Below are positions 12,527-55,051 of a stretch of 64,000 nt of DNA, piece by piece. Position numbers and translations under genes: made by a program. Source of the DNA: Saprospiraceae bacterium. GTDB lineage: Bacteria > Bacteroidota > Bacteroidia > Chitinophagales > Saprospiraceae. The notes under the pieces are model-generated. The model was not told the origin of the DNA, did not search any database, and saw only the letters and a list, made by a program, of their open reading frames with translations. The DNA lies in the NCBI GenBank assembly GCA_047634015.1, contig JBLIDB010000001.1, positions 16,094 to 80,093 of the forward strand, written 5' to 3'. Each line of letters opens with the position of its first letter. The first letter of the stretch is position 1.

Positions 12527-12635
12527 ATGAAAGTGGATATATACCAAAGTCGGTGACCAAACGCTCAAGTTAACCAACTTGGATAAGGTGTTATATCCTA
12601 ATGCTGCCTACACTAAGTCTGAGATAATCCAATAA
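12527..12635 (+). pseudogene. Remnant of the N-terminus of a LigD polymerase/primase-domain (NHEJ) gene
   Basis: MKVDIY then a frameshift in a TATATA run, then KVGDQTLKLTNLDKVLYPNAAYTKSEIIQ*. This matches the start of the M. tuberculosis LigD Pol domain as I recall it (VTLTNADKVLYPATGTTKSDIFDYY). Only about 35 codons survive. Confidence 0.6.
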
Positions 12636-12952
12636 CATCTCAAAATGGCAGATAATAATTGGAGATTATAGTACTGGACACAATGGCATTGATGAAAAAG
12701 GGGATTCATTTTGGTATACTAATCAATTAGAGGAGCTGGAATCTTTAGGTATGAAAGATGCTTTTAGATATTTAGATGGCCAAGTTGAGGAATATTCATG
12801 GTTTAGTCTGTCATCAAGGAAATGGATATGATCACACTTATATATGTGATGTTCTCAAACCATTCATCAGCAAATGCGAGTATCTTCATTCTTATAGAGA
12901 GGCCGGGATTTCAGATCACTCGCCGATGTTACCTGTCCTGGGTAGTCTTTGA
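12628..12952 (+). pseudogene. C-terminal remnant of an endonuclease/exonuclease/phosphatase (EEP, ExoIII-like) gene, frameshifted
   Basis: IIIGDYSTGH (GDFN-like) ...GMKDAFRYLDGQVEEYSWFS...RKWI*. After a +1 shift at about 12824 it reads GYDHTYICD...GISDHSPMLPVL (RIDYI...SDHxPV-like). There is no start codon and the N-terminal half is missing. Confidence 0.6.
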
Positions 12953-12978: not shown

Positions 12979-13677
12979 CTAACTAAAGGGTGATAACAAT
13001 CGGGATATCATCTCAATTCCAGATCTTAGATTTTGACCTTTTGCGGTTGTCTCAGCCGTATATCTTACATCAACAGGAATTTCACTTATTTTAGAATGTG
13101 TAATTTTCGCATGTTTTATAATTTCCATACAAAATTCGAAACCATCATAATTTAAGTTCAAGTCTTGAGCAAGAGAACCACTAATGGCCTTGAGACCTGA
13201 TTGGCTATCTGTGAGATACTTTCCAGTAAGGAGAAAGCTTACAATATTAGCAATACCATTGTAGATACGGCGAGAGGTAGGAATAGAATTTGAACTTATA
13301 AATCGACTACCGATTACAAGGTCAGCATTTATTTCTTCCATGTGCTTAATAAGCCTAGGAATATCTTCAGGATTATGTTGGAGGTCGGCATCTATGGTTA
13401 CTATGATTTGAGCATTTTTAGATGCTGCGAATGCAATACCGGTTTGGGTAGCTGCTCCTGCTCCAAGATTAATAACATGATCCAGGACGTAGGCTTCTTG
13501 GAATTGTTCGGCAATGTCTCTTGTCTTGTCTGTGCTTTGATCATTGACGACAACAACCTGATATAGTCCAAGTGTCAATATTTGGGTGATAAGATCATTT
13601 AGATAGTTGTCTTCATTCTTAGCAGGAATGACAATGTAGATGTCTTTTAGTGAGGTCTTGAATTCTATGTTTTTCAT
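12979..13677 (-). CDS. Soluble family 2 glycosyltransferase, DPM1/polyprenol-phosphate-sugar synthase-like
   Basis: IVIPAKNE, VVVNDQSTDKT and TIDADLQH (DxD) motifs. It is 232 aa with no TM segment and is the last gene of a three-gene operon. Confidence 0.75.
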   Translation of the reverse strand: MKNIEFKTSLKDIYIVIPAKNEDNYLNDLITQILTLGLYQVVVVNDQSTDKTRDIAEQFQEAYVLDHVINLGAGAATQTGIAFAASKNAQIIVTIDADLQHNPEDIPRLIKHMEEINADLVIGSRFISSNSIPTSRRIYNGIANIVSFLLTGKYLTDSQSGLKAISGSLAQDLNLNYDGFEFCMEIIKHAKITHSKISEIPVDVRYTAETTAKGQNLRSGIEMISRLLSPFS

Positions 13678-15087
13678 CTATAGAATTTCATAAATTGCAT
13701 AGCTACCAAAAGTCAAAATATTTTCGCCAAATACTTCCGATACTTTAGATTTGGTTCCATCATTTTGTTTTATTTCAATTACTCGATCTGTGGCAAGTAA
13801 TTGGACGCTTGGGTTTTTATAAATGGTATTTAGCAGTAATTGATACTTTTTCGTTAGAGATTTTTCAGGAGTCTTATCCAATGTATGGGTATAGAGATCA
13901 ATTAAGATATATTTGAAATTTGAAGCCTTAAGAGCCGCAATAATCTTCTCTTTTTCTTTCAAGGCATCTACAAGCCAAAAGAATTGGGGAAGTGTATTGT
14001 CTTGAAAAAGGCGCTCAGTGTTATTCTTTATATCAAAGGCAAAGAAGGTACCTATTTGATATATTAAAGCATTATTAGAATTTATCTTTTCAAGTGCATC
14101 ATTGATATTGCCATAAGACTTGCTTCGTGCTTCTTTAGCACTTATAAGAGATGTGGAATATTGGAAAGTATTATTATCCAAAATACCCTTACCTATGTTA
14201 GCAGTATTCTCTCCTGTTTGCATAGTATTGATATTGGAAATTCGTCCTACCCAACACATAGTTATCCATATTAATAAAAACAAAATAATTATGTTCTTAA
14301 TGGAACCAAAAGAAGGGTAGGCGTTGAATTTATCGTTACTACAAAAGTGTAGAATGCTAGTGAGACCTAAAGGGATTATTAAAAATCCGTACCAGATAAT
14401 TCCTGAACTAAGTGCCAACCATAGAAATGAAAATGGGATAAATACAGCAGCAACAAACTGACCCTTTTCTGAAAGCTTGATTCTATGAACGAGTAGCCAT
14501 AAACTACCTATGAATAGAAGGATTAGTATGGGATAAGTAAAATGATCTCGATTTCCAGAAATTTGGTTCCCGATTACATGTATAGGACGCGAAGCGTAAT
14601 ATGATATATTAAAAATTCCTGTGGTGATACTCTCAATTACACTCTTATCGGAATTAGCAATAAAGCTTTGCCACTTTGTGCCATGATTATTAACTTGACC
14701 ATGGAACTGTGTATATTGGAATGAATAACTAAGACAAAGACTTAAGAAGAGAAAAAACACAACGAGCGATGTGTAAAATAGCTTTCGATGCTTATAAACA
14801 AGACCAAGAAACACTAATGGCAATAGCATGAACAAGGCAAAGCCCAAATCTACATAACGTCCTTGTTGATTTGTATTAGAACTAATATCATAAGGCAGCG
14901 TAAGATATCTGAATAGTAAATCTTCATATCCGAAATAGCGTTGAATTTCATCTCTCTTATCATCACTTATGATCTTGTCCAATTCGATGACAAGCGGATC
15001 TTGCTTAGAATCTTCTTGACTATTAAGCGGGGAGATAGAACTAAATAGAACAACAATTAGTAGAATTAACCTTAACTCTAATCTCAT
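13678..15087 (-). CDS. Polytopic membrane protein with a C-terminal extracytoplasmic domain, function unknown
   Basis: Signal peptide, about 8 TM helices, then about 190 soluble residues. An ATGA overlap with the upstream gene suggests translational coupling, and there is a 0-nt gap to the GT2 gene. Confidence 0.55.
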   Translation of the reverse strand: MRLELRLILLIVVLFSSISPLNSQEDSKQDPLVIELDKIISDDKRDEIQRYFGYEDLLFRYLTLPYDISSNTNQQGRYVDLGFALFMLLPLVFLGLVYKHRKLFYTSLVVFFLFLSLCLSYSFQYTQFHGQVNNHGTKWQSFIANSDKSVIESITTGIFNISYYASRPIHVIGNQISGNRDHFTYPILILLFIGSLWLLVHRIKLSEKGQFVAAVFIPFSFLWLALSSGIIWYGFLIIPLGLTSILHFCSNDKFNAYPSFGSIKNIIILFLLIWITMCWVGRISNINTMQTGENTANIGKGILDNNTFQYSTSLISAKEARSKSYGNINDALEKINSNNALIYQIGTFFAFDIKNNTERLFQDNTLPQFFWLVDALKEKEKIIAALKASNFKYILIDLYTHTLDKTPEKSLTKKYQLLLNTIYKNPSVQLLATDRVIEIKQNDGTKSKVSEVFGENILTFGSYAIYEIL

Positions 15088-16727
15088 TGCTCATTCTTCT
15101 TTTGAGATTCTCTATAATTTGAGATTATAGTAGAAGCGTTGATCTTGGGAGAAGGCTTTTCACCTATCACAAGCTTCATAATAGAAAGGCTTTTTGTATA
15201 GGTATAATTTTTATACATCCAAGGAGAGAATGTAAGGGCCATAACCGCACCGCATAATATAAGTGGCTTAATACTAGCAATAAATTTCTCTTTGGATTGT
15301 ACAAAAATATATAAAAGGCCAGAAAGACCTAATGCAATACAAATACCGCCTGTAACATTGGGGCTTAAATGATATTCTCTTAATCCACTTAGATCGTCTA
15401 AGCGGGCTAAAAGGACAAGACCAAAACCTAAAGATGCTACCGAAAGCATTCCGATAATATCTTTATGGAAATTCCAGAGAGCAAGAAAAAGTGCATAAAC
15501 AAGAAATACACTTAGTACTTTAATTGAAAGTCCATACCCTAACAGAATTCCTATAATCACCACCAACTTAGTATCAAATGGCGTTTCTAATAAAGTGCTT
15601 TGAGAATTATTCTTTTTGTATTCAAATAACCACCACATGACCAAATTTAATGTAACCATTTGGAAAAATAATAGCGCGAGGTCTACTTTGAATTCTATCA
15701 TCCAATGATTTGTAACAGTAGGAGACACCATGAATAACATCACTACTAAGAGAGACATATTGGAAGAAACCTTTAGATGATGATGAGCAAACTCATATAT
15801 TGCGAAGAGACAAAGTATGCCTCCTAAGCTGGAGATAAACATTGTAACTTCTGGACTATCAAAAGCTATATATCCTGTAGACATTACAAGACTCCATGCA
15901 TATGGCGAAAAGCCACTTATCAATGCCCCCGCGTCTGAGATAAGATTGGCAATATTTACATAGTAGTTCCGAGCATCAAACCCCAAAGGAAATGGTGCTT
16001 GCGTGTAGAGATAATTCATCGTCAGATAAACGAGGATAAAAAATGCCAAAAATCCTCCCCAAAAATTGAAACCTTTAGGTTTGGTAATCGGTGACCATAG
16101 AACTCTTTTTACAAAACCAAGAGCTTCTTCATAGTTCAATAGAATGAAAAGTGCCATGATGCCGAGTAAGAGTACCTGGTTCAGTAGCGCAAAAGCTCCC
16201 AAAGCCATCATTATGAATGTATATGCTATAAAGCCAATAGCAATATCCAACAAGGCAAAAGTGAGGCTGGTTTCAGGTGATTCTATTAGTCTCTTTCTCA
16301 AAAACCTTCCAATGCTATAACAAGCCGTAATCAAGAAGAAAGCACTTCCAAGGGTAAAAAGAGCCATGCCCGCTAAATGGAGAAAGTGAGAAAAATCAAG
16401 CGGAGCCTTCCAATAATGATTAAAAGAAAGTGTTATCGCCCATATAATCCCAATCACAAGAAGCAGGACCATTATTCCGTTAACAATGTTAAATTTTAAT
16501 CGATTTAAGAAAAACAATCGATTGTAATACAAAGAGAGGAGGGATCCAATAACTGTAAAAAAGCCAAATAGCTTGAAATATCTGAAATAGCGAAACGAAG
16601 GGCCATATACAACTTGCTTGTTAATGTAATCGATGAATATAATACCCACCCAAAACAAAGCGAATATTAAAAATATCCAATCTTGTAGAGTAAACTTAGA
16701 AATGTATCCGCGTAGACGATCAATCAT
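15084..16727 (-). CDS. Large polytopic membrane protein, possible GT-C-fold glycosyltransferase
   Basis: About 13 predicted TM helices, with an early loop motif PFPLGFDARNYY (an acidic/aromatic loop as in GT-C enzymes). The track's TTG start at 16745 overlaps the -7 box, so I prefer the ATG at 16727. Confidence 0.5.
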   Translation of the reverse strand: MIDRLRGYISKFTLQDWIFLIFALFWVGIIFIDYINKQVVYGPSFRYFRYFKLFGFFTVIGSLLSLYYNRLFFLNRLKFNIVNGIMVLLLVIGIIWAITLSFNHYWKAPLDFSHFLHLAGMALFTLGSAFFLITACYSIGRFLRKRLIESPETSLTFALLDIAIGFIAYTFIMMALGAFALLNQVLLLGIMALFILLNYEEALGFVKRVLWSPITKPKGFNFWGGFLAFFILVYLTMNYLYTQAPFPLGFDARNYYVNIANLISDAGALISGFSPYAWSLVMSTGYIAFDSPEVTMFISSLGGILCLFAIYEFAHHHLKVSSNMSLLVVMLFMVSPTVTNHWMIEFKVDLALLFFQMVTLNLVMWWLFEYKKNNSQSTLLETPFDTKLVVIIGILLGYGLSIKVLSVFLVYALFLALWNFHKDIIGMLSVASLGFGLVLLARLDDLSGLREYHLSPNVTGGICIALGLSGLLYIFVQSKEKFIASIKPLILCGAVMALTFSPWMYKNYTYTKSLSIMKLVIGEKPSPKINASTIISNYRESQKKNEQ

Positions 16728-16742
16728 AATAAAATAGTAGAC

Positions 16743-16750
16743 CAAAGGTA
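16743..16750 (-). promoter_or_regulatory. Bacteroidota -7 promoter box (TACCTTTG on the minus strand) for the membrane-protein/GT2 operon
   Basis: Matches TAnnTTTG. It lies 15 nt upstream of the ATG at 16727. Confidence 0.5.
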
Positions 16751-16791
16751 TAACTTTTATCTGCTTTTAAGGATTGCTATTAACCTTGAAA

Positions 16792-16809
16792 TTAATCTTA
16801 AGAGATTAA
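16792..16809. promoter_or_regulatory. Inverted repeat TTAATCT-N4-AGATTAA in the divergent MarR / membrane-operon intergenic region
   Basis: 7-bp perfect arms. It lies between divergently transcribed units, which is the usual place for a MarR operator. Confidence 0.3.
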
Positions 16810-16871
16810 AGTTCAATGGATTAAATATTGTTTAATTTGTCAACTATTATCAAGATAATTGAATTGCTTTT

Positions 16872-17321
16872 GTGGGATTAGAGAAAGAGATAAAACAGAA
16901 AACACCATTCTCAAATGAAGGCAATAGAGCTTTGGTAAATATTCTATATTCTTCAGGTTGGCTAACGGAGAGGTTGAAATCTCACTTTAAGCCCTATGGA
17001 ATTACTCCGAAGCAATATAATATTCTTCGAATCTTAAATGGTGCTATGGATCCAATGTCCACTTCTCAGATCAGAGCGCGTATGCTTGATAAAATGTCAG
17101 ATGTTACGCGATTAATTGATAGGATGGTTTTAAAGCAATGGATCACAAAAAACGCAAGTAATGTAGATAGAAGGTTGATAGATGTTCGGATAACCTTAAA
17201 AGGGGAAAAGCTTTTAAAGGATATCGATCAGGTTAATCCACCGCTTGACAATATCATATCAAATCTTAATGAGATTGAATGCGCTCAACTTAACATTCTA
17301 TTAGATAAGTTGAGAGGTTGA
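16872..17321 (+). CDS. MarR-family transcriptional regulator
   Basis: 149 aa with a winged-helix core ITPKQYNILRIL...MSTSQIRARMLDKMSDVTRLIDRMVLKQWI...DRR. GTG start. Confidence 0.85.
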   Translation: MGLEKEIKQKTPFSNEGNRALVNILYSSGWLTERLKSHFKPYGITPKQYNILRILNGAMDPMSTSQIRARMLDKMSDVTRLIDRMVLKQWITKNASNVDRRLIDVRITLKGEKLLKDIDQVNPPLDNIISNLNEIECAQLNILLDKLRG

Positions 17322-18596
17322 TTAGACTTGACGCTTCAGAGATCTATGCCGATTTTGTGAAGTCTTCCAGAGAAAAATCATATTTAACATCAATGACGCG
17401 CAAAGGTATAGGCCAATAAAAGGGGTAACTAAGTGAGATGTGCTGCTCAATCCAAACCAATCTCCATAGCTAACAATTATATAGGTTCCTAATCCAAATT
17501 TTACGAATTCTGCGATTAGTGAAACAAAATCATTATCCATTAAGCTCGAATAGGCGAATATTGAGATGAAGAGGAATAAAACATATAGTATGATACTATA
17601 TGTGGTTAGTTCACCTATATGCGTTAGTAAGTGATATGTCATAAGATTAGTGATGATCAACTGTGCCCAAGACCAGGCTTCTAATCCAGAAGGTATATCG
17701 GGGTTATATTTTTGTTGAGAAAACGGGTCTTCGATAATGGTGATAGGATATTTTCTCTTAACATCTTCTGGTCGCCAACCAGTAGGCATGAACCATATGC
17801 GAGCCTTGTCCCAGAGGTCCTCAGCTCTCCAAGCGTCCTTAATAAGCTGCCATAGATGTTGGTAGTTGATCAATATCGGATTCCAAGTATGCACTGGTTT
17901 CTTTACTCCATAAACAGGCGGAATTTCGGGAGATTCTTCTTGGAAAGTGCCAAAGAGTTTATCCCAAATAATAAAAATCGCAGCGTAATTTTTATCAATG
18001 TACTCTGGATTTATGGCATGGTGGACTCTATGATGTGATGGGGTAACTAAGATGTATTCCAAAAACCCCATTCGATTTATAAGCCTCGTGTGATACCAGA
18101 ACTGGGCAAACAAGTGAAGTGGCGCTATAATCGCAATCACCTTTCCAGGGATTCCTACTATAGCCATAGGAATATATAAGAAGAAGTATACACCTACCAC
18201 GGCAGAAATACTTTGACGCAGTGCGCAGGCAAGATTGAATTCTTCACTGGAATGATGAACAATATGACGATTCCACATAAGGTTGATCTCATGATTGAAT
18301 CTATGTGACCAATACGAAGCGAAATCAATAAGGACTAATGCTACTATAAATACTAAAAATGTAGAAGGAATTTTAAATAAAGCCAAATGAGACTCCATCC
18401 ATCCATAACTAATAATTACTATACCAAGTCCAACGACTTCCTTCAGGGTATTGGTAAGTCCGGAACTCAGGCTGGATATAGTATCCATAGATGTCACAAT
18501 CTTTTGAGACATATAAAGACTCATTAGATACTCGATAATTATTAGAATTACAAAACCTGGTATGGCGTATGACAATACAGTTGCATATGCTTCCAT
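17322..18596 (-). CDS. Fatty acid hydroxylase / sterol desaturase superfamily membrane protein with a long hydrophobic C-terminal extension
   Basis: His boxes HRFNH, HIVHH and HHRVHH. It is 424 aa, and about 190 residues with further TM helices follow the catalytic domain. Confidence 0.8.
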   Translation of the reverse strand: MEAYATVLSYAIPGFVILIIIEYLMSLYMSQKIVTSMDTISSLSSGLTNTLKEVVGLGIVIISYGWMESHLALFKIPSTFLVFIVALVLIDFASYWSHRFNHEINLMWNRHIVHHSSEEFNLACALRQSISAVVGVYFFLYIPMAIVGIPGKVIAIIAPLHLFAQFWYHTRLINRMGFLEYILVTPSHHRVHHAINPEYIDKNYAAIFIIWDKLFGTFQEESPEIPPVYGVKKPVHTWNPILINYQHLWQLIKDAWRAEDLWDKARIWFMPTGWRPEDVKRKYPITIIEDPFSQQKYNPDIPSGLEAWSWAQLIITNLMTYHLLTHIGELTTYSIILYVLFLFISIFAYSSLMDNDFVSLIAEFVKFGLGTYIIVSYGDWFGLSSTSHLVTPFIGLYLCASLMLNMIFLWKTSQNRHRSLKRQV

Positions 18597-18702
18597 GAGT
18601 ATTTATTTTTTGACTAAGTTACTATTTCCTACGAATGATGGTGCTGTCTTTGAGAATCGATTGAATTGACGCGTATTAAGTAGGCCTCATTATCAATATT
18701 TC

Positions 18703-18710
18703 TATCTTTG
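18703..18710 (+). promoter_or_regulatory. Bacteroidota -7 promoter box (TATCTTTG) for the PIP-synthase-like gene
   Basis: Matches TAnnTTTG. Only 8 nt separate it from the ATG at 18719, which implies a leaderless or near-leaderless mRNA. Confidence 0.5.
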
Positions 18711-18718
18711 CAATAATT

Positions 18719-19399
18719 ATGGATTATAAGGAAGTCGGTCGGAGGGTTTTATATTTTTTGTTTGATCCACTGGTTCATATTATCAAAAAACTGGGCATAA
18801 CTCCCAATCACATTACCCTTGTGGGTTTGATCTTGAATATTTGGGCAGTATTACATCTTATTAACTATACGGATTGGGCCTTGGTGGCATACGGTGAAAA
18901 TTTAGTTGGATTTGGATTCATACTCGGGTTTGCGGGTTTAATGGATACCATAGACGGGAGATTGGCAAGATTGTATGATATGAAATCAACTTTTGGTGCA
19001 TTTTTCGACTCTGTAATCGATCGATATAGTGAATTCATTATGTTTTTAGGGATACTACTCTACTTTATTCATTTTAATCATATGACAGGATTAGTTTTCG
19101 GGTTTATGGCATTGATGGGTTCGATAATGGTTAGTTATAATCGATCTAGAGCGGAAGCATTAGGTGTTGATTGTAGTGTTGGGTTTATGCAGCGGCCAGA
19201 ACGAATTGTATTCATAGGGCTTTGGACAATAATTTGGGGTGTCCTGTATATGACAGTACCGAGTACTTTTGACTATGAAATCTACGGTGTTGATATCTTT
19301 GCCATTGGTTTTATTTTTCTGGCGATCTCTACTAACATTACAGCCATGCGTCGGATGTTACATTCTCAAAAATTATTGCTTGAACAATCGGGTAATTAA
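18719..19399 (+). CDS. CDP-alcohol phosphatidyltransferase, phosphatidylinositol-phosphate synthase-like
   Basis: Signature DTIDGRLARLYDMKSTFGAFFDSVIDR (DGxxAR...G...D...D). It is 226 aa with about 6 TM helices and is linked to the MIPS and PgpA genes. Confidence 0.75.
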   Translation: MDYKEVGRRVLYFLFDPLVHIIKKLGITPNHITLVGLILNIWAVLHLINYTDWALVAYGENLVGFGFILGFAGLMDTIDGRLARLYDMKSTFGAFFDSVIDRYSEFIMFLGILLYFIHFNHMTGLVFGFMALMGSIMVSYNRSRAEALGVDCSVGFMQRPERIVFIGLWTIIWGVLYMTVPSTFDYEIYGVDIFAIGFIFLAISTNITAMRRMLHSQKLLLEQSGN

Positions 19400-19443
19400 A
19401 TCTATTTCTATCAAACCATTGAAAAACATCGATAGTCATCGCG

Positions 19444-20358
19444 ATGGGTCATTTTAAACATAGATTGGTTGTTGCTGGCATTTTTGCCATAGCTTATGGG
19501 GTTCTGATGGGGCTTTTTGTTGGGTGGAGATCTGATCATACCTTTATGTTCGGCCTTGTGCTTGTTATGATGTTAGCACATAAGGAGTCCTATAAGATTG
19601 TATTGGCCTTATCTGGATTTGCCCTTTTCTGGATTATATACGATGCTTTAAGAATTGCGCCTAATTATAGATTTAATGATGTTCATATTAAGGAACCATA
19701 TGAGATAGAGTTGGCTCTTTTTGGTATCATAGACGCTGGAAAATTAGTAGTCCCATGTGAATGGTTTCTAACTCGAATAAATGATACTGCTTCACTTATT
19801 GCTGGATTCTCATACATTCTCTGGATGCCAGCTCCAATGGCATATGCCTTATATCTGTATTGGAAAGATTGGTCTATCTTATTTGATTTTTCCTATGGTT
19901 TTTTACTGACATGCTTTATCGGTTTTTTCTTTTATTACGCATATCCAGCGGCGCCTCCTTGGTATTTTTTAAATCATGGAGTAGGTACAGATTTTAGTAT
20001 TCCCGGCAGCGAAGGCCTTCTTTCAGAATTTGACAGAATTCTTGGAGTGACCATATTTAATGGTATTTATGCGAAAGGAGGCAATGTATTCTGCGCCATT
20101 CCTTCATTACATTCCGCTTATCCGATGCTTTGCCTATTGACTGCTTTACGACGAAAGACATACACGCTGGCTTTTGTCTTCTTAATATGGGGTTTTGGTA
20201 CATGGTTCGCCGCGGTATATTCTCAACATCATTATATTATAGATGTGTTAATGGGTATATTTTGTGCCATTTTGGGGCACTTTCTCATTGTTAAAATCCA
20301 GAAATTCTCATGGATATCTTCCTTTAAGAAAATATTCTTGAAGGAGCTGTATCTATGA
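19444..20358 (+). CDS. PAP2-superfamily membrane protein, inositol-phosphorylceramide synthase-like
   Basis: C-terminal motifs PSLHSAYP and SQHHYIIDVLMG match the AUR1/IPC-synthase-type PAP2 signature. It is a 304-aa polytopic protein. Confidence 0.65.
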   Translation: MGHFKHRLVVAGIFAIAYGVLMGLFVGWRSDHTFMFGLVLVMMLAHKESYKIVLALSGFALFWIIYDALRIAPNYRFNDVHIKEPYEIELALFGIIDAGKLVVPCEWFLTRINDTASLIAGFSYILWMPAPMAYALYLYWKDWSILFDFSYGFLLTCFIGFFFYYAYPAAPPWYFLNHGVGTDFSIPGSEGLLSEFDRILGVTIFNGIYAKGGNVFCAIPSLHSAYPMLCLLTALRRKTYTLAFVFLIWGFGTWFAAVYSQHHYIIDVLMGIFCAILGHFLIVKIQKFSWISSFKKIFLKELYL

Positions 20359-20489
20359 TATAGTATTACATATTATAATTTCTACCATAGATGCCGCGCA
20401 ATTGGTTTACTCGAAAACGTGAATTTTATTGATCAACATGGCAGGTTCGAGTGTTTTTAACTCTTTCTTTTCTGTTAGATTCAAAATCC

Positions 20490-20497
20490 TACCTTTG
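20490..20497 (+). promoter_or_regulatory. Bacteroidota -7 promoter box (TACCTTTG) for the MIPS operon
   Basis: Matches TAnnTTTG. There are 38 nt between the box and the ATG at 20536. Confidence 0.5.
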
Positions 20498-20535
20498 CGG
20501 TCCTTTTACGAAAAAATAAATAAAACCTCTATTCT

Positions 20536-21804
20536 ATGAGTAATAATTCAAAAGCAACTAAACCGACGGGTACCCTCGGTATTCTTACCCCTGGAATGGG
20601 TGCAGTTGCCACTACATTCATTGCAGGGTGTATAGCTATTAAGAAAGGTATGGCTAAGCCAATCGGTTCACTTACACAAATGGGCCATATTACCGCCGCG
20701 GATGGTAGTCGACGTCGCATAGATGAGATTGTACCACTCCAAGCATTGGGCGATGTAATCTTTGGAGGATGGGATGTACATCCGGATAGCGTATATGATG
20801 CAGCGGTTAATGCAAAAGTTATAGACCGCTATATGATCGAGCAGTTAAAACCTGAACTGGAAGCCATTAAGCCAATGACTGCTTGCTTTGATCAGCGATA
20901 TGTCAAACGACTCCATGGAACGAATGTGAAGACTCAGACCAATAAGATGGAATTGGCAGAAGCGCTGATGGATGATATTAGAAGATTTAAAGAGGAGAAC
21001 AATTGTGATCGATTGGTGATGGTTTGGTGCGGAAGTACAGAAATGTATATTGAAGAATCTGATGTGCATACTACTCTTGCTAAATTAGAAGAAGGACTTA
21101 GAAATAATGACGAGAATATCCCTCCGAGCATGATATATGTTTATGCTGCGGTCAAGATGGGTATTCCATATGCTAATGGAGCGCCTAACTTAAGTTGTGA
21201 TGTGCCAGCTATCTTAGAATTGGCCGCTCAGACACAGACTCCTATAGCAGGGAAAGATTTCAAAACAGGGCAGACGTTTATGAAGACGATCCTCGCTCCT
21301 GGTCTTAAGTCAAGACATCTGGGTATAGAAGGCTGGTTCAGTACTAATATATTGGGTAATAGAGATGGAGAGGTATTGGATGCGCCTGAGAACTTCAAAA
21401 CTAAAGAGGTTTCTAAACTGGGAGTTCTTGAGCAAATATTAGAGCCCGATTTATATCCCGAACTTTATGGTGATATGTATCACAAAGTTCGAATCAATTA
21501 TTATCCACCGAGAGGGGATGCGAAAGAGGGTTGGGATAATATCGATATAAGAGGATGGATGGATTATCCGATGCAAATAAAAGTAGATTTTTTATGTAGA
21601 GATAGCATACTTGCCGCACCATTAGTATTGGATCTTGCGATCTTGTTAGATCTTGCCAAAAGATCTGGTGAGAGCGGTATCCAGCATTGGTTAAGCTACT
21701 ATCTAAAGTCCCCGCAGACCTTACCTGGAGCTAAACCTCAGCACGATTTATTCAAGCAGCATGATGATTTGAATAAAAAACTGTTTGAATTAGCGGGAGA
21801 ATAA
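20536..21804 (+). CDS. ino1: myo-Inositol-1-phosphate (inositol-3-phosphate) synthase
   Basis: 422 aa with N-terminal nucleotide-binding stretch LGILTPGMGAVATTFIAG. Core motifs PYANGAPN, FKTGQT and WFSTNILGNRDG resemble the short archaeal/bacterial MIPS type. Confidence 0.85.
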   Translation: MSNNSKATKPTGTLGILTPGMGAVATTFIAGCIAIKKGMAKPIGSLTQMGHITAADGSRRRIDEIVPLQALGDVIFGGWDVHPDSVYDAAVNAKVIDRYMIEQLKPELEAIKPMTACFDQRYVKRLHGTNVKTQTNKMELAEALMDDIRRFKEENNCDRLVMVWCGSTEMYIEESDVHTTLAKLEEGLRNNDENIPPSMIYVYAAVKMGIPYANGAPNLSCDVPAILELAAQTQTPIAGKDFKTGQTFMKTILAPGLKSRHLGIEGWFSTNILGNRDGEVLDAPENFKTKEVSKLGVLEQILEPDLYPELYGDMYHKVRINYYPPRGDAKEGWDNIDIRGWMDYPMQIKVDFLCRDSILAAPLVLDLAILLDLAKRSGESGIQHWLSYYLKSPQTLPGAKPQHDLFKQHDDLNKKLFELAGE

Positions 21805-21813
21805 AATAATTCG

Positions 21814-22281
21814 ATGAAGTGGTTAGCAACTTTCATTTCATCCGCAGGTGGAGCAGGATATGTGCCTTTTGCACCCGGTACGTGGGGTACACTTGTAGGC
21901 TGTATTATCCTCTATGTTTTATCCTACTTCTTCGTTGGGTTCAATTCAGGATGGCAATTGGTGGGCCTTACAATAGTTCTTAGTGTTTTCAGTCATCAGC
22001 TAATAGCTTTTTTGCCTGATACATGGGTTCATGACGATGGTAGAATTGTAATAGACGAAGTTTTAGGACTTTGGGTAACCTTGTTCTTCCTACCAGTTAC
22101 TCCTACCACTTTGGTGCTTGGATTTATCTTTTTTCGCATTTTTGATATTTGGAAACCGCTTGGGATAAGATATTTCGATCAGCTGAAATCAAACTGGGGA
22201 GTAATTGTCGATGATATAGTGGCAGGTGTCTATGCGAATATTGCGTTAAGAGGAGTAATACTAATTTTGTTATGGATATGA
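21814..22281 (+). CDS. pgpA: Phosphatidylglycerophosphatase A family protein (candidate PIP phosphatase)
   Basis: 155 aa with GGAGYVPFAPGTWGT, DDGRIVIDEVLG and RIFDIWKP motifs typical of PgpA. Confidence 0.8.
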   Translation: MKWLATFISSAGGAGYVPFAPGTWGTLVGCIILYVLSYFFVGFNSGWQLVGLTIVLSVFSHQLIAFLPDTWVHDDGRIVIDEVLGLWVTLFFLPVTPTTLVLGFIFFRIFDIWKPLGIRYFDQLKSNWGVIVDDIVAGVYANIALRGVILILLWI

Positions 22282-22694
22282 CACTGAAGCAAGGCACTCA
22301 GAATGTACCTATTGTAAAATCATTTTTTAGGTATAATGCCTCTGCGATGACAGCAAGCGCATTTGATTTTGGTATTACGCTATTTTGCAAGGAGGTATTA
22401 GGAGTTCACTATTTGGTGTCCGTATTTTTAGGTGCGCTGAGCGGAGGGGTTGTCGCATTTACACTTGGGCGAAACTGGACTTATCTTAGCAAAGACGAAA
22501 AACCGCAAACTCAAGGGGCTAAATATTTGATTATTTGGGTAGGTAGCATATTGTTAAATACATTTGGGGTTTATTTCATAGCAGAAGTCCTTGGCTTTGG
22601 TGAGGAGTATTATATTTATTGGAAAGTAATAACAGCCACTTTGGTTGGAGCCTTTTACAATTTTCCTATGCAGCGATACTTTGTTTTTAAATGA
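22272..22694 (+). CDS. GtrA-family membrane protein (polyprenol-phosphate-sugar translocation family)
   Basis: 140 aa with 4 TM helices. The N-terminal FxxFxxxSxxxxxxDF-like segment and the C-terminus QRYFVFK are typical of GtrA. It overlaps pgpA by 10 nt. Confidence 0.7.
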   Translation: MDMTLKQGTQNVPIVKSFFRYNASAMTASAFDFGITLFCKEVLGVHYLVSVFLGALSGGVVAFTLGRNWTYLSKDEKPQTQGAKYLIIWVGSILLNTFGVYFIAEVLGFGEEYYIYWKVITATLVGAFYNFPMQRYFVFK

Positions 22695-23575
22695 TGTCGG
22701 ATAAAAAAAAGCTTCTGTTTATTATAAACCCCTTTGCTGGATATCGAAGCAAGAATAGGATGCCTAAGCTTATCAATGAGGTCATCTCCAAAGAGATGTT
22801 TGACTATGATATTGAAGAAACTCAATACGCAGGGCATGCTTCTGAGATAGCTGCAGAAGGAGTAACATCCCAGTACAATGCTGTTGTAGCTATTGGTGGT
22901 GATGGGACACTCAATGAAGTGGCTTCATCTCTTATATATACGGATGTTGCATTAGGGATAGTACCAGGAGGTTCTGGTAATGGGATGTCTACACATTTGG
23001 GTATCGGTCGAAGTGCTCGTAAGGCGCTGAGAATTCTTGGAGATTACAATGTCCGCAGAATGGATTCTGTTAAATTGAATGATAGATTCTATCTTAATAT
23101 GGCAGGAATTGGAATAGATGGCCTTGTAGCATATAAGACAAAACTCAATGCAAAAAGAGGTTTTTCGAATTATCTGAAAGGCGCCCTCGTAGAAAGTATC
23201 AAATACAAGAATCAGAAATACACTATTGAGGTAGATGGCAAGGAATATACAGGGAAGTTCCTTTCAGTCAATGTAGCCAATGGATCTATGTTCGGCTATA
23301 ATTTCACTATAGCTGCCGATGCTGACACTTCGGATGGATTATTGGATACACTCATGATCCGTGATGCCCACAAGATTGATTATTTCGGTAATGCTTGGAG
23401 ATTTTGGGCTGGAAGAATTCATAAAAGCAAGTTGGCAAAAACAGCGAAAACATCCTCTTTGAAACTCACTACTTATGAGGATAGTTATATGCATATTGAT
23501 GGCGAAGGTTATCCTTGTCCTCCTGGAGAGTTTGAATTTACGGTTATGAAGGATTCCCTTAATGTGATCTGCTAA
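22691..23575 (+). CDS. DAGK-catalytic-domain lipid kinase (YegS/BmrU/sphingosine-kinase fold)
   Basis: LFIINPFAG, GGDGTLNE and PGGSGNG motifs. 294 aa. It has an ATGA overlap with the GtrA gene. Confidence 0.8.
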   Translation: MMSDKKKLLFIINPFAGYRSKNRMPKLINEVISKEMFDYDIEETQYAGHASEIAAEGVTSQYNAVVAIGGDGTLNEVASSLIYTDVALGIVPGGSGNGMSTHLGIGRSARKALRILGDYNVRRMDSVKLNDRFYLNMAGIGIDGLVAYKTKLNAKRGFSNYLKGALVESIKYKNQKYTIEVDGKEYTGKFLSVNVANGSMFGYNFTIAADADTSDGLLDTLMIRDAHKIDYFGNAWRFWAGRIHKSKLAKTAKTSSLKLTTYEDSYMHIDGEGYPCPPGEFEFTVMKDSLNVIC

Positions 23576-23638
23576 TTTATCTTTGGCTTGTTAACAACTC
23601 ATTTAGAGTAAATTTCACATAATACATCTACAGCTTTC

Positions 23639-23646
23639 TACCTTTG
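23639..23646 (+). promoter_or_regulatory. Bacteroidota -7 promoter box (TACCTTTG) for the DUF5916 gene
   Basis: Matches TAnnTTTG. There are 7 nt between the box and the ATG at 23654. Confidence 0.5.
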
Positions 23647-23653
23647 TGGGCTT

Positions 23654-25870
23654 ATGAGAATTATATTATTCTTTTTTACAATGTGTTCGGTCATTTGGAC
23701 TTATGCACAGGCTGGATTAGAGCTTTCCGAAGTTCAGGTTAAGTCTATCGAATCGGGTCGTGTTACAGTTGATGGAGAGCTGAATGAAGCTTTCTGGATG
23801 GAAATTACTCCGGCCACGGACTTTCAGCAATATTTTCCTACAGATTCTATAAAGGCCCAAGCAAGGACAGAGATTTATCTGGCGTCAGATGATGAGCATC
23901 TATACGTAGGATTAAAGTGTGTTTCTGCAGGCAATAAATGGATCGTTCCTTCTCTTAAACGGGATTACAGGGCAGGAGGTAATGACAATGTAACTTTAGT
24001 TTTTGATTCATTTGATGATCAGACTAATGCAATATTCTTTGGCATCAATCCTGAGGGCGTTATCAGGGAGGGGCTTATTAGCAATGGTGGAAATAGGAGA
24101 GAGGATTTTTCTGAATCATGGGATAATAAATGGGCTGGAACTTCCAAGAAATACGATGGGTATTATACTGCCGAGTTAGCAATTCCATTTAGTACGCTGA
24201 GATATAATGCCGATAATGATAGATGGGGATTAATGTCCTACAGATTCGATACGCAAATCAATGAGTGGAGTACTTGGCCGGGAACACCTCAGAATCAAGT
24301 TTTATTCAACTTAGCCCATATGGGTGAGATAAACTGGGAGGTCGCTCCACCTAAAGGAAAAAAACAAGTAAGTATTATACCTTTTATTTCCGCAGGAGTA
24401 AGCAGGGATTTCGAAGAAGGTACACCTTCAGATAAGTTCATAGAAGTTGGGGGAGATGCTAAAATTGCGCTGACTTCAGGGTTGAATCTAGATCTAACAA
24501 TAAATCCAGATTTCTCTCAAGTGGAAGTAGATCAGCAGATAACTAATCTGGATAGATTCGAATTATTCTTTCCAGAAAGACGCCAGTTCTTTTTAGAAAA
24601 TGCTGATTTGTTTGGTCAGTTTGGATTTCAAAGTATCAATCCATTTTTCTCACGAAGGATCGGCGTTGCGAATGATGTAGAAACAGATAATACGGTTCAA
24701 AATCGAATCTATGGTGGCCTTAGGCTAAGTGGGAAGGTCAATAAAAAGCTGAGAGTGGGGTTGCTGAACATGCATACAGAGTCCAACCATGAGCAAGGGA
24801 TTCCCTCTACAAATTATGCAGTTCTTGCCCTCCAACAAAAAGTTCTTAGTAGATCTAACATCAGCTTTATCGCTGTCAATAAAAACGCTGCCTTAGATAA
24901 TCTTGAGGGTAGTGATTTAAGCAAATTCAATCGAGTTTTTGGTGTAGACTTTAATTATGCTAACAATGATAACACATGGTCAGGTAAGACTTTCGCACAT
25001 ACAGCTCTTACTCAAAATCAAGGTGCAAAATTGAGTCATGGTACAAACTTAAATTATAATAAAAGAGAATTTGGACTTTCTTGGGAGCATGCATATGTGC
25101 AGGATGGTTATAACGCAGAAGTGGGCTTTATAAGAAGGACAAATTATATCAGGATCGCGCCTTCTGGAGAGTTAAGATTCTATCCGGCAGGAAAGAAGCT
25201 GAATACGTTCAACCTTGGTACGGAGACTGAAATGATTTGGAAGACAGGATTTGGGAAGACCGATCATGAGATAAGAATAGGAAGTGAAATTGGATTAACA
25301 AATAGCACACGTCTGGGCGTTTTTTTTAACCATAATTATGTCTACCTGTTTGATGATTTTGATCCAACGGGTACAGACTCAGCTCCCCTAATGGCAGATA
25401 GTGAATACAATTACTGGAATATCGCCGGATTCTGGAGTTCGGATTCCAGAAAGAAGTTGTCCTTTCAATTACGACCATATATAGGTCAGTACTTTAATGG
25501 GAATAGATATGGAACCCGTGGTTCTATATCATTGCGTTATGAGCCAAGAGGATCAATAAGGTTGGATTATTCTGTGAACTATTTTGATATGCCTCATTTA
25601 GATGAGGTGAAAAGTACACTTCTAATAGGTCCAAGAATTGATTACACTTTCTCAAGGTCAGTATTTTCGACTTTGTTTGTTCAGTACAATAGTCAATCTC
25701 AGAATACTAATGTGAATGCACGACTACAATGGCGATTTGCCCCCGTTTCTGACTTTTTCTTAGTCTATACGGACAATTATTTTAGCGGATTAGATCCTTC
25801 GGATCGATTCGCATTAAATGTTAGAAACCGCTCAATCGTAGCAAAGCTTACCTATTGGTTCAATACATAA
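23654..25870 (+). CDS. Secreted CBM9-like / DUF5916 family protein (probable outer-membrane beta-barrel)
   Basis: Signal peptide. The motif NPDFSQVEVDQQITNLDRFELFFPERRQFFLE is one I recognise from DUF5916 proteins. The C-terminus is aromatic (TYWFNT). Confidence 0.65.
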   Translation: MRIILFFFTMCSVIWTYAQAGLELSEVQVKSIESGRVTVDGELNEAFWMEITPATDFQQYFPTDSIKAQARTEIYLASDDEHLYVGLKCVSAGNKWIVPSLKRDYRAGGNDNVTLVFDSFDDQTNAIFFGINPEGVIREGLISNGGNRREDFSESWDNKWAGTSKKYDGYYTAELAIPFSTLRYNADNDRWGLMSYRFDTQINEWSTWPGTPQNQVLFNLAHMGEINWEVAPPKGKKQVSIIPFISAGVSRDFEEGTPSDKFIEVGGDAKIALTSGLNLDLTINPDFSQVEVDQQITNLDRFELFFPERRQFFLENADLFGQFGFQSINPFFSRRIGVANDVETDNTVQNRIYGGLRLSGKVNKKLRVGLLNMHTESNHEQGIPSTNYAVLALQQKVLSRSNISFIAVNKNAALDNLEGSDLSKFNRVFGVDFNYANNDNTWSGKTFAHTALTQNQGAKLSHGTNLNYNKREFGLSWEHAYVQDGYNAEVGFIRRTNYIRIAPSGELRFYPAGKKLNTFNLGTETEMIWKTGFGKTDHEIRIGSEIGLTNSTRLGVFFNHNYVYLFDDFDPTGTDSAPLMADSEYNYWNIAGFWSSDSRKKLSFQLRPYIGQYFNGNRYGTRGSISLRYEPRGSIRLDYSVNYFDMPHLDEVKSTLLIGPRIDYTFSRSVFSTLFVQYNSQSQNTNVNARLQWRFAPVSDFFLVYTDNYFSGLDPSDRFALNVRNRSIVAKLTYWFNT

Positions 25871-26011
25871 ATCAAAAGCTTCATGCGTTTGTCTATAATT
25901 GCCACGCATTTGTATACAATTCAGAACATTGATTTTGAATTTGATCAACATTACGGGGTGTTTCGGGTTTATACCTTCTATTCACTTTATAATACAAATC
26001 AACTACATCTT

Positions 26012-47288: not shown

Positions 47289-48692
47289 TTAAGCATGAAT
47301 ACCAGAGAGGCTCATTTTTACTTGCTTCTCTAGTTCTTGAAGAGCATCTTTTATAAGGGGATCTGTATCTATGAGATCTTCGACAGTCTTACATGAGTAG
47401 ATAACTGTGCTATGATCTCTACCTCCAAAGTTATCACCTATCGCTTTCAATGAACTATTAGTATGGTGTTTGGCAAGATACATAGAGAGTTGACGAGCCA
47501 TTACAACTTCTCTTTTCCTTGTTTTTCCTTGAATTTTGTCTACAGGTATTTTCAAGTACTCGGAAACAAGTTGTTTGATATTGTCAATGGTAATTTCCTT
47601 ACTTACACCGCTAACGAACCCTTGAACAACATGCTTAGCAAGGTTTATATCTATTTCCTTGTCGTTAAGCGAAGATTGGGCGATAAGCGATACAAGCACA
47701 CCTTCAAGCTCTCTAACATTATCCTTTACATTGTAAGAGATGAATTCCATCACGTTATTCCCAATAGTAGCAACCCCTTCTGAATCTATCTTAGAAGATA
47801 AAATCGCCATTCGGGTTTCGAAATCAGGAGCTTGAAGATCAGCAGATAGACCCCACTTGAATCTGGAGATCAATCTATCTTGAATGCCTTCCAGAGATTT
47901 AGGAGGACAATCAGAAGTAATAATAATCTGCTTGCCAATCTGATGTAGATGATTGAAAATATTAAAAAATATCTCCTGTGTCTTCATTTTATTAGACAGA
48001 AACTGGATGTCATCTACTATTAGGATATCTATAGTCTGATAGAAATTCACTAATTCATTTACAGAATTCTTCTTTATAGATTCTATAATTTGATTTGTAA
48101 ATCGCTCAGTACTAATATATAGTGTGTTCTTTTTTGGAAACCTTTGTTTGACTTCATTGCCGATAGCATGAGCCAAATGTGTCTTTCCTAATCCAACATC
48201 TCCGTATACAACTAAAGGATTAAAGGCAGTTCCTCCAGGATTCTTAGCAATAGCCATTCCAGCACTTCTTGCCAATTTATTACAATCGCCTTCTATAAAG
48301 TTATCGAAGGTGTATTTTGGATTGAGTTGAGGGTCTACTCTAAGTTTCTTAATGCCAGGAATTACGAAAGGATTTCGGATGTTTTGTGATGAATAGAATT
48401 GTCTTTCATTAGAAGAATTAGCTTGTCGACCAGCATTTTGATGGTCATCAAGAAGAACTTGATATTCTAATTTGCCTTCTTCGCCAAGTTCTTGACGAAT
48501 GGTCTTTTTTAACAATCCGACATAATTCTCTTCGAGCCATTCATAATAGAATGTATTGGGAACCTGAATGGTGAGGGAACTATTATCTAACTTAATAGGC
48601 TTAATTGGTTCGAACCACGTTTTAAATGTTTGCGCATTTATACTTTTTCTAATTGCCTGAAGACAATTGTCCCATACGCTAATGTGGTCCAT
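47289..48692 (-). CDS. dnaA: Chromosomal replication initiator protein DnaA
   Basis: Walker A GDVGLGKTHL, Walker B ILIVDDIQF and the domain IV motif FGGRDHSTVIYSC. ATG at 48692, two codons inside the TTG start given in the track. Confidence 0.95.
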   Translation of the reverse strand: MDHISVWDNCLQAIRKSINAQTFKTWFEPIKPIKLDNSSLTIQVPNTFYYEWLEENYVGLLKKTIRQELGEEGKLEYQVLLDDHQNAGRQANSSNERQFYSSQNIRNPFVIPGIKKLRVDPQLNPKYTFDNFIEGDCNKLARSAGMAIAKNPGGTAFNPLVVYGDVGLGKTHLAHAIGNEVKQRFPKKNTLYISTERFTNQIIESIKKNSVNELVNFYQTIDILIVDDIQFLSNKMKTQEIFFNIFNHLHQIGKQIIITSDCPPKSLEGIQDRLISRFKWGLSADLQAPDFETRMAILSSKIDSEGVATIGNNVMEFISYNVKDNVRELEGVLVSLIAQSSLNDKEIDINLAKHVVQGFVSGVSKEITIDNIKQLVSEYLKIPVDKIQGKTRKREVVMARQLSMYLAKHHTNSSLKAIGDNFGGRDHSTVIYSCKTVEDLIDTDPLIKDALQELEKQVKMSLSGIHA

Positions 48693-48922
48693 AGACAATG
48701 CAGTTGTTCACGAAGTTATTAAAAATAATAAGCTTTTGGGATGGCGAGAATTAACTCTCAGCTTTATGCAAAGATGAAGATAAAATATGTTTAATCGAGC
48801 ATGAATGACAAGAAGTTTGACATATATTTTATCGTTATATAAATATTCTATGAAATTGATTATCAGTGGGTTATGGATGATAATTCGTGAAATATATAAG
48901 TCTTTGATTTTTAGGGTTGTTC

Positions 48923-54145: not shown

Positions 54146-54299
54146 GCTTTACTTTGTTTAGAAGGCAATATATGAATTATTAATTCTTAGAATTGTGTCA
54201 ATATTTCCGAGTGAAGAACAAGAGTATTCGATTTTAAAATGCGATTTTGGCGTTAAACTTTATCATCTGTTCACCTTAAACTGAATTTAATTATTGTGT

Positions 54300-55034: not shown

Positions 55035-55051
55035 AAGAGAAATAATCAATA

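Follow-up and report, generated by a model that had tools for sequence, protein, structure and literature searches.

Does a 10.6-kb interval in the genome of a Saprospiraceae bacterium encode one pathway, in which inositol lipids are made and then glycosylated, or two systems that lie side by side? The interval spans positions 12979-23575 of a 64,000-nucleotide stretch of contig JBLIDB010000001.1 (assembly GCA_047634015.1), hereafter the window, which has a G+C content of about 38%. A preliminary description, made from the sequence and its open reading frames (ORFs), had listed here enzymes for the synthesis and lipid attachment of inositol phosphate, a lipid hydroxylase, a GT2 glycosyltransferase, polytopic membrane proteins and a regulator, and had proposed a pathway comparable to that for mycobacterial phosphatidylinositol mannosides and lipomannan (PIM/LM) or for the glycosyl-inositol-phosphoceramides (GIPCs) of fungi and plants. 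All of the ORFs that it named were found at their coordinates, and all of the component families were confirmed by Pfam and NCBIfam. The minus strand carries the genes for the GT2, two membrane proteins that we call M469 and M553, and an FA_hydroxylase-superfamily enzyme, while the plus strand carries a MarR-family regulator, the inositol-lipid genes and a lipid kinase; conserved companion genes were followed on to position 28459. We mapped the window proteins onto 119 fetched loci (L numbers), and the source genomes of the compared Saprospiraceae loci are all metagenome-assembled genomes (MAGs). Our analysis indicates that the interval is probably a juxtaposition of two modules, each able to exist alone: the inositol-lipid operon (Module I) and the M553-M469-GT2 triad (Module T).

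The chief alternative is that the triad glycosylates the inositol headgroup of phosphatidylinositol-diacylglycerol (PI-DAG) or PI-ceramide, or a hydroxyl added by the hydroxylase, at the periplasmic face, giving a GIPC/PIM-like lipid. The polyprenyl-phosphate sugar made by the GT2 would then be flipped by the GtrA-family protein of the inositol operon, and the DUF5916 protein and outer-membrane barrel encoded downstream would help in outer-membrane placement. We consider this reading unlikely, and much of the evidence on both sides of it comes from synteny. The order M553-M469-GT2 is identical in all of more than 25 loci, with the GT2 after M469 wherever the locus reaches, and a neighbour-joining tree of M553 resolves two clades. 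In the hydroxylase-linked clade, the FA-hydroxylase gene is always upstream of M553, often together with MarR. The ACOX-linked clade comprises 13 loci in which M553 is at most 41% identical and neither a hydroxylase nor inositol genes lie within 10 kb; upstream of the triad are an ACOX-SH3_3 gene and a small ORF, and downstream are a GT4 and a 245-aa ORF, followed by Exo_endo_phos, Ku and LigD. In five loci of the hydroxylase-linked clade (L009, L011, L013, L014 and L018), the 5-8 kb past the hydroxylase encode a LuxR-type response regulator, a histidine kinase, Psd, CdsA, an Rce1-like protein and PdxJ, with no inositol genes. A distant triad on a 2.1-Mb contig (L033) is flanked by a GT4, an ABC transporter and two GDP-mannose-dehydratase-type genes, and a fused member of the family (L034) lies beside a sulfotransferase-glycosyltransferase fusion. 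Altogether, inositol genes are absent within 8-10 kb in about 15 of the 21 assessable triad loci, which counts against a joint pathway. The reciprocal side is unlinked as well, in five Saprospiraceae inositol loci and in 79 distant ones, and adjacency does not hold over the whole phylogenetic range of the two modules. As a control for synteny, we noted that in both clades the triad has Exo_endo_phos-Ku-LigD and Trx-ABCF on its flanks. The synteny of these unrelated genes with the triad is no less persistent than that of the inositol genes. A neighbourhood that has been kept is thus a weak indicator of function in this lineage, and the adjacency of the two modules is retained no better than that of Ku-LigD.

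Several observations weigh against the two-module view and in favour of a shared pathway. The modules abut in four loci that represent two deep branches, namely the window, L006/L007 (M553 79% identical), L030/L031 and L032. The last two have M553 proteins only 44-46% and IPC (inositol phosphoceramide) synthases only 48-50% identical to those of the window, and yet the whole window arrangement recurs in them. As L030/L031 and L032 form the basal branch of the hydroxylase-linked clade in the tree, and the adjacency is found in a derived branch too, it looks ancestral and long retained. In a third branch, the contig L001/L027 keeps the modules about 11 kb apart; its spacer holds about 7 kb of sulfate-assimilation genes and the DUF5916 and outer-membrane protein (OMP) genes in inverted orientation, and L012 is alike as far as it extends, so that one or two loci show this spacing. 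A complete lack of synteny between the modules is overturned by L030/L031, L032 and the L001/L027 contig. The hydroxylase bridges the two modules, as it lies beside the triad throughout its clade and beside the inositol operon in lineages without a triad there, a pattern that a shared pathway could give. Both modules were present in every genome or contig where this could be checked (7/7). These include the two MAGs in which the modules are unlinked (2/2), CAZFWJ01 and JAHDDE01, which carry ACOX-linked triads on separate contigs (L022 and L016, respectively), although co-occurrence carries no information should all members of the family have the inositol operon. A separate point against our reading, which concerns the mechanism of Module T, is that the GT-C assignment of the triad proteins, discussed below, rests on weak signals, with no PDB fold match for M553 and no PDB sequence match for either protein. 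The expectation of the preliminary description that the two blocks would co-occur and stay adjacent is thus borne out in part: the arrangement recurs in a distant branch (IPC synthase 48%) and both modules are found wherever this could be checked, but they are unlinked in most triad loci. Its caution that the linkage is purely positional holds after the synteny analysis.

Sequence divergence also bears on this question. Between triad classes, M553 diverges faster than the hydroxylase (36-39% versus 64-65% identity), which would be compatible with a change of acceptor. In a fuller version of the joint pathway, a split GT-C/GT2 system present throughout the family would have a rapidly diverging copy that one Saprospiraceae lineage took up beside its hydroxylase and inositol operon; the product would be a glycosylated (hydroxy-)inositol phospholipid or phosphoceramide, an analogue of GIPC and PIM made outside Actinobacteria by a two-subunit GT-C enzyme not recognised before. 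We regard this scenario as quite unlikely.

Module I begins with a BT_1523-like phosphatidylinositol phosphate (PIP) synthase (PIPS; 18719-19399, +), a CDP-OH_P_transf protein whose translation shows the motif DxxDGxxAR...GxxxDxxxD. It is followed by an AUR1/BT_1522-like phosphoinositol-(dihydro)ceramide synthase, the IPC synthase (19444-20358, +; PAP2_3, 4e-18), in which H223, H262/H263 and D267, the catalytic residues, do not vary across the IPC-synthase alignment. Both miss the equivalog cut-offs of their best NCBIfam models, PIPSynBT1523 (NF052561; 213 versus 350 bits) and the phosphoinositol dihydroceramide synthase model (NF052609; 264 versus 480 bits), and we therefore take them to be divergent homologues and not equivalogs by the NCBI criterion. 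Next come a synthase of myo-inositol-1-phosphate (MIPS; 20536-21804, +; NAD_binding_5, 3e-92; Inos-1-P_synth, 5e-32), a PgpA-family phosphatase resembling the PIP phosphatase BT_1525 (21814-22281, +; PgpA, 4e-38) and a BT_1524-like small membrane protein of the GtrA family (22272-22694, +; GtrA_DPMS_TM, 3e-12), whose gene overlaps both the PgpA and the kinase genes. The last gene of the interval, which the preliminary description had not named, encodes a YegS/BmrU lipid kinase (22691-23575, +; DAGK_cat and YegS_C; TIGR00147 at 124.5 bits, above the cut-off of 118.65) and is translationally coupled to GtrA. This kinase is found in every Saprospiraceae inositol cluster and in none of the 79 clusters of other Bacteroidota. 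Beyond it are genes for a DUF5916 protein with a borderline CBM9-like domain (23654-25870, +; Pfam) and an outer-membrane barrel with CarboxypepD_reg, Plug and OMP_b-brl_3 domains (25883-28459, +; Pfam). DUF5916 adjoins the inositol genes in L027, L030/L031 and L115-L119, and the barrel follows it, with the same neighbours, in L027, L031, L115 and L117. The sequence TATCTTTG at 18700-18718, just upstream of the PIPS start codon, contains a -7 box of the Bacteroidota type (TAnnTTTG). Such boxes were read by eye, and a sigma-70 promoter scan was not used because Bacteroidota promoters differ. In L035 (RCNE010021382.1), a 91% relative, PgpA directly follows the IPC synthase (2377-2432) and MIPS is missing from the operon, so the presence of MIPS at this position differs between near relatives.

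The genes of Module I have well-characterized counterparts. In Bacteroides thetaiotaomicron, BT_1526 (MIPS), BT_1523 (PIP synthase), BT_1525 (PgpA-type PIP phosphatase) and BT_1522 (PI-dihydroceramide synthase) have been shown experimentally to yield PI-DAG and PI-dihydroceramide (Heaver et al. 2022, PMC9246714). All five of the BT_1522-BT_1526 families are clustered in the window with their catalytic motifs intact. The gene order differs, however, and the Saprospiraceae version adds the coupled YegS-type kinase, a divergently transcribed 424-aa FA-hydroxylase, DUF5916 and the outer-membrane barrel. We therefore interpret the plus-strand block, from its sequence, as a Bacteroidota inositol-lipid cluster of the already-known BT_1522-1526 type that is extended in Saprospiraceae. 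Two IPC-synthase homologues led to contigs of the MAGs CAZFWJ01 (L115/L116) and JAHDDE01 (L117-L119), where the order is NTP_transf_3, the FA-hydroxylase on the minus strand, and PIPS-IPCS-MIPS-PgpA-GtrA-kinase-DUF5916-OMP on the plus strand, with no triad there. Because the hydroxylase and the arrangement from PIPS to OMP stand without the triad in these genomes, the conserved Saprospiraceae unit is the FA-hydroxylase plus the inositol operon out to the OMP barrel, that is, 17322-28459.

To gain a broader view of inositol clusters, we scanned metagenomes with the IPC-synthase alignment and obtained 80 loci, 79 of them distant (37-47% identity). Together with more than 10 loci from Saprospiraceae, this brings the loci with clustered inositol genes to more than 90. 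M553, M469, a window-type hydroxylase, MarR and the kinase occur in none of the 79 distant loci, and the lack of a triad in these clusters of other Bacteroidota is a further point against a joint pathway. GtrA adjoins PgpA in 29 of the 79, and it is present in 19 of the 27 loci that are 15 kb or longer. GtrA is thus a core gene of the inositol cluster across Bacteroidota, and since it accompanies the inositol genes where no triad exists, it does not qualify as a part provided for the GT2 operon. That GtrA keeps to the inositol genes and not to the triad is one more point against a joint pathway. In about 25 metagenome loci besides L091 (1-10870) and L055 (1-10879), the inositol genes stand amid sphingolipid genes in a long operon. 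Its contents are an aminotransferase like serine palmitoyltransferase (SPT), a GNAT protein, an epimerase-type reductase, MIPS, PgpA, GtrA, DUF5686, a PIPS-DUF4833 fusion, and a short FA-hydroxylase beside the IPC synthase; the first three resemble the bacterial ceramide-synthesis trio. The hydroxylase in other Bacteroidota inositol clusters has 229 aa, and the possibility that the 424-aa enzyme of the window is its orthologue was rejected (blastp E 0.04). A CarboxypepD_reg outer-membrane barrel accompanies the inositol genes in both groups, as DUF5916 plus OMP_b-brl_3/Plug in Saprospiraceae and as a different barrel, DUF5686, elsewhere; the latter directly follows GtrA in 29 loci of other Bacteroidota (e.g., L091, 5458-8001, and L055, 3523-6054). 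The barrel could serve to transport inositol lipids or to expose them at the surface.

The pathways to which the interval had been compared have defining enzymes of their own. Mycobacterial PIM/LM synthesis employs the PIP synthase PgsA1, Ino1, the GT4 enzymes PimA and PimB', PatA, the GT2 Ppm1 and the GT87 enzyme PimE. The window shares with it a route to PI by way of PIP, a DPMS-like GT2 and a polytopic protein that is a candidate transferase. However, the 15 proteins encoded at 9.8-28.5 kb give no Pfam match to Glycos_transf_1/GT4 or GT87, no acyltransferase is encoded in 12-28.5 kb of the window, and the GT-C signal is of the PMT_2 type, not GT87. The GIPCs of fungi and plants are made by AUR1/IPCS, the hydroxylases Sur2/Scs7, and the glycosyltransferases Csg1/Sur1 (GT32), IPUT1 (GT8) and GMT1 (GT64), and the headgroup glycosyltransferases are nucleotide-sugar-dependent Golgi enzymes of unrelated families. 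Here the likeness lies in the AUR1-like IPC synthase and in an FA_hydroxylase-superfamily enzyme, which need not act on sphingolipids; GT32, GT8 and GT64 are absent, and according to Pfam the DPMS-like GT2 is the sole glycosyltransferase domain in the region. The proposal of a PIM- or GIPC-like pathway is therefore supported as far as the generic component classes go, all of which are present, but the defining glycosyltransferases of both pathways are missing from the region. In the searchable literature, neither a bacterial glyco-IPC nor the inositol lipids of Saprospiraceae turned up. For the glyco-IPC, this counts against a joint pathway. The inositol block alone has already been described (PMC9246714).

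Between the modules lie the genes for the MarR-family regulator (16872-17321, +; Pfam MarR, 6e-8), which is divergent from the triad, and the hydroxylase, a 424-aa di-iron membrane oxygenase of the FA_hydroxylase superfamily (17322-18596, -; Pfam, 6e-29). The hydroxylase adjoins the triad, the inositol operon or both in every Saprospiraceae locus seen, being next to PIPS without a triad in L115-L119, while in L009, L011, L013, L014 and L018 it has the triad but no inositol genes beside it. Across all lineages it is 61-65% identical to that of the window, while M553 ranges from 61% down to 36%, and the two triad classes are thus unusually divergent from each other. This distribution raises the possibility that the hydroxylase and the triad form a unit of their own, controlled by MarR, that hydroxylates and, in a second step or independently, glycosylates another membrane lipid, such as an amino lipid or lipid A, with the inositol operon as a mere neighbour. 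Consistent with such a unit, the hydroxylase adjoins the triad in all loci of the hydroxylase-linked clade and in L001, in L012 and in the five loci with the two-component system, Psd and CdsA it goes with the triad instead of the inositol genes. MarR occurs only where the triad adjoins the hydroxylase (the window, L006, L001, L012, L009-L011 and L018) and is missing in L005, L013, L014, L030, L115 and L117. Among curated models, the hydroxylase matches that of the ornithine-lipid hydroxylase OlsE best, and ArnT, an enzyme that modifies lipid A, belongs to PMT_2. The OlsE score, however, is only 72 bits against a cut-off of 475, the triads flanked by ACOX have no hydroxylase, and in CAZFWJ01 and JAHDDE01 a hydroxylase 64-65% identical to that of the window stands beside the inositol operon with no triad. 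We consider a separate hydroxylase-triad unit very unlikely.

The triad itself consists of three tightly packed genes. M553 (15084-16727, -) is a polytopic, all-helical membrane protein of 547 aa with its start codon at 16727 and no Pfam match. The start of M469 (13678-15087, -; 469 aa, no Pfam or NCBIfam match) overlaps the M553 stop by 4 bp (15084-15087), and there is no gap between M469 and the GT2, the last gene of the triad (12979-13677, -; junction at 13677/13678). The GT2 (232 aa; Glycos_transf_2, 4e-28) resembles DPMS, PpgS and ArnC. In NCBIfam it scores best with PpgS (150 bits, under the cut-off, with the full length covered), its closest solved structure is the Pyrococcus furiosus DPMS (5mlz, 1.4e-19), with ArnC and GtrB also matched, and it is predicted to be soluble, with no transmembrane (TM) segment. 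On these grounds, we predict that it is a polyprenyl-phosphate sugar synthase. M469 has a signal-anchor, an acidic conserved loop (E47, R50, Y51, E55 and D67), about six more TM helices and a C-terminal alpha/beta domain, and it is 100% identical to an NCBI-recorded protein of a Saprospiraceae MAG. M553 has 51 close homologues, all in Saprospiraceae MAGs, and a profile search of 1.84 billion representatives recovered 646 relatives, many of about 1000 aa. In one such fusion, P0375, the match to M553 covers residues 15-545 and that to the M469 profile residues 580-1009 (hhalign probability 100%, E 9e-59). Because they are fused in other lineages, M553 and M469 are best regarded as parts of one functional unit; that they are duplicates of each other was rejected (hhalign probability 0.6%).

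In the divergent intergenic region between M553 and MarR (16728-16871), TACCTTTG provides a -7 box of the type TAnnTTTG about 20 nt upstream of the M553 start codon. This box is kept in L006 and L012, while the remainder of the region is not alignable. We also considered a conserved MarR operator here (box and palindrome noted at 16790-16810), but the palindrome TTAATCT-N4-AGATTAA is not kept beyond the closest relative, past which the region no longer aligns, and there is no shared inverted repeat. Some MAGs have two triads or two M469 homologues (L019 and L021 in CAZJTO01; L009 and L024 in CALHUZ01; P0025 and P0223, AAFQ02_00950 and AAFQ02_09300), which may mean that triads form a small multigene family in single genomes or that strains are mixed in the bins.

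What M553 and M469 do is suggested by several remote signals. Pfam PMT_2 is detected in 17 of 60 distant members of the M553 family (best E 1e-6), and no other family is found in more than two. The PMT_2 region maps to residues 281-418 of M553, and about 30 residues upstream of it is the loop PFPLGFDARNYY, in which the Pro, the Asp (D251) and the Tyr are invariant in 126 diverse members; D251 is the likely catalytic residue. AF2 models were obtained with a pLDDT of 84.6 for M553 and 78 for M469. The top Foldseek matches of M469 are GT-C enzymes, namely STT3 (E 0.025, probability 0.87), DPY19, AftD and AglB, all of them weak (E 0.025-0.4, TM-scores of about 0.27). A GT-C fold for M553 was not recovered from structure, as Foldseek gave no PDB match at E<=0.001, with unrelated transporters and complex I subunits on top and AftA at rank 26. 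The alignment profiles of both proteins found nothing among PDB sequences, even at E<=10. The view of the preliminary description that these are GT-C-like proteins thus gains some independent support, weak as it is, from PMT_2, the M469 matches and the fusion, but not from the fold of M553. A split GT-C-like transferase, remotely related to PMT_2/GT-C enzymes, is suggested by these results but not established.

Known three-component systems such as GtrA/GtrB/Gtr, CsbB/GtcA/YfhO and ArnC/ArnEF/ArnT (PMC7389260, PMC8035078, PMC11127046) are similar in that a GT2 related to polyprenyl-phosphate glycosyltransferases is in an operon with polytopic proteins, which here carry weak PMT_2/GT-C signals. 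The triad differs in that its transferase is split into two non-homologous proteins outside any family model, in that its GT2 lacks the C-terminal TM helices of GtrB, and in that the GtrA gene, 5.5 kb from the triad, belongs to the inositol operon. There is also no dedicated flippase in the form of a GtrA homologue within 10 kb of the triad in loci without an adjacent inositol operon.

For Module I, we propose on the basis of homology to B. thetaiotaomicron that MIPS would supply inositol phosphate, that the CDP-alcohol transferase would form PIP-DAG, and that the PgpA-type phosphatase would convert this to PI-DAG. The AUR1-like PAP2 enzyme would then shift phosphoinositol to (dihydro)ceramide. 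Because this reaction releases diacylglycerol, the YegS-type kinase could plausibly recycle it, and the divergently transcribed FA-hydroxylase, DUF5916 and the outer-membrane barrel are conserved companions. In contrast to the homology calls and the synteny map, which were computed, the steps and the acceptor of Module T (12979-16727, with MarR) are inferred. It would be a polyprenyl-phosphate-sugar-dependent periplasmic glycosylation system: the GT2 would load a sugar onto polyprenyl phosphate at the cytoplasmic face, M553 would pass it after flipping, through D251, to an acceptor outside the cytoplasm, and M469 would be the obligate partner of M553. As Module T is usually away from inositol genes, a surface glycan, lipopolysaccharide or another envelope molecule is more likely to be the acceptor than an inositol lipid.

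There is one further alternative, which concerns Module T alone. Mycobacterial Ppm1 has a polytopic partner of the anchor or activator type, and M553 and M469 might likewise be an anchor, activator or flippase for the GT2, with the sugar used by enzymes encoded elsewhere. This is highly doubtful: although the GT2 lacks a TM segment, no PDB fold matches M553, the M469 matches have TM-scores of only 0.27 and no flippase gene belongs to the triad outside the window lineage, PMT_2 is found in 17 of the 60 distant members, an Asp, a Lys and an Asp are invariant in predicted loops of 126 diverse M553-family members, the Foldseek list of M469 is led by GT-C enzymes and not transporters, and the fusions of about 1000 aa have an architecture like that of large GT-C enzymes.

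Other features of the window were noted in passing. The seemingly empty 740-bp gap between Trx and the GT2 holds, at 12537-12937 (+), a LigD fragment (residues 15-52) joined directly to an Exo_endo_phos fragment (131-226). This is the scar of a deletion of about 3.6 kb in which Ku and most of the non-homologous end joining (NHEJ) operon were lost; the operon is intact at the corresponding position in L001, L005, L006 and L008. A second GT2, AglJ/ArnC-like (DPMS/AglJ-like; 54294-55034, +), is convergent with the gene for a 557-aa polytopic protein (55052-56725, -), which is assigned to the LIC_10190 family of membrane proteins (NF047510, 248 bits, above the cut-off). From its sequence, 54294-56725 looks like another pair of a polyprenyl-phosphate-sugar GT2 and a membrane transferase, and such pairs are therefore not rare in the genome, which adds to the case for two separate modules. 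A DnaA gene at 47289-48698 (-) places the window near the chromosomal replication-initiator locus. Searches for RNA features in the window gave no Rfam family match and no tRNA.

Overall, the inositol operon represents established biology, met here in a new family, and the triad belongs to a known kind of system as a variant not described before. The operon extends inositol-lipid genes to environmental Saprospiraceae, with the lipid kinase, the FA-hydroxylase, DUF5916 and the outer-membrane barrel as new conserved companions. The position of GtrA as a core gene of inositol clusters sharpens the question posed by its counterpart BT_1524, a GtrA-motif protein whose knockout in B. thetaiotaomicron had no lipid phenotype (PMC9246714). 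M553 and M469 constitute an uncharacterised two-part family of membrane proteins with 646 representatives, many of them fused, that is always seen beside a DPMS-like GT2 and appears to be a new branch of the PMT_2-type GT-C enzymes. The link between the triad and the inositol operon is a hypothesis that can be tested and has modest support; should the modules prove to be coupled, they would constitute the first pathway to a glycosylated inositol lipid in any Gram-negative bacterium.

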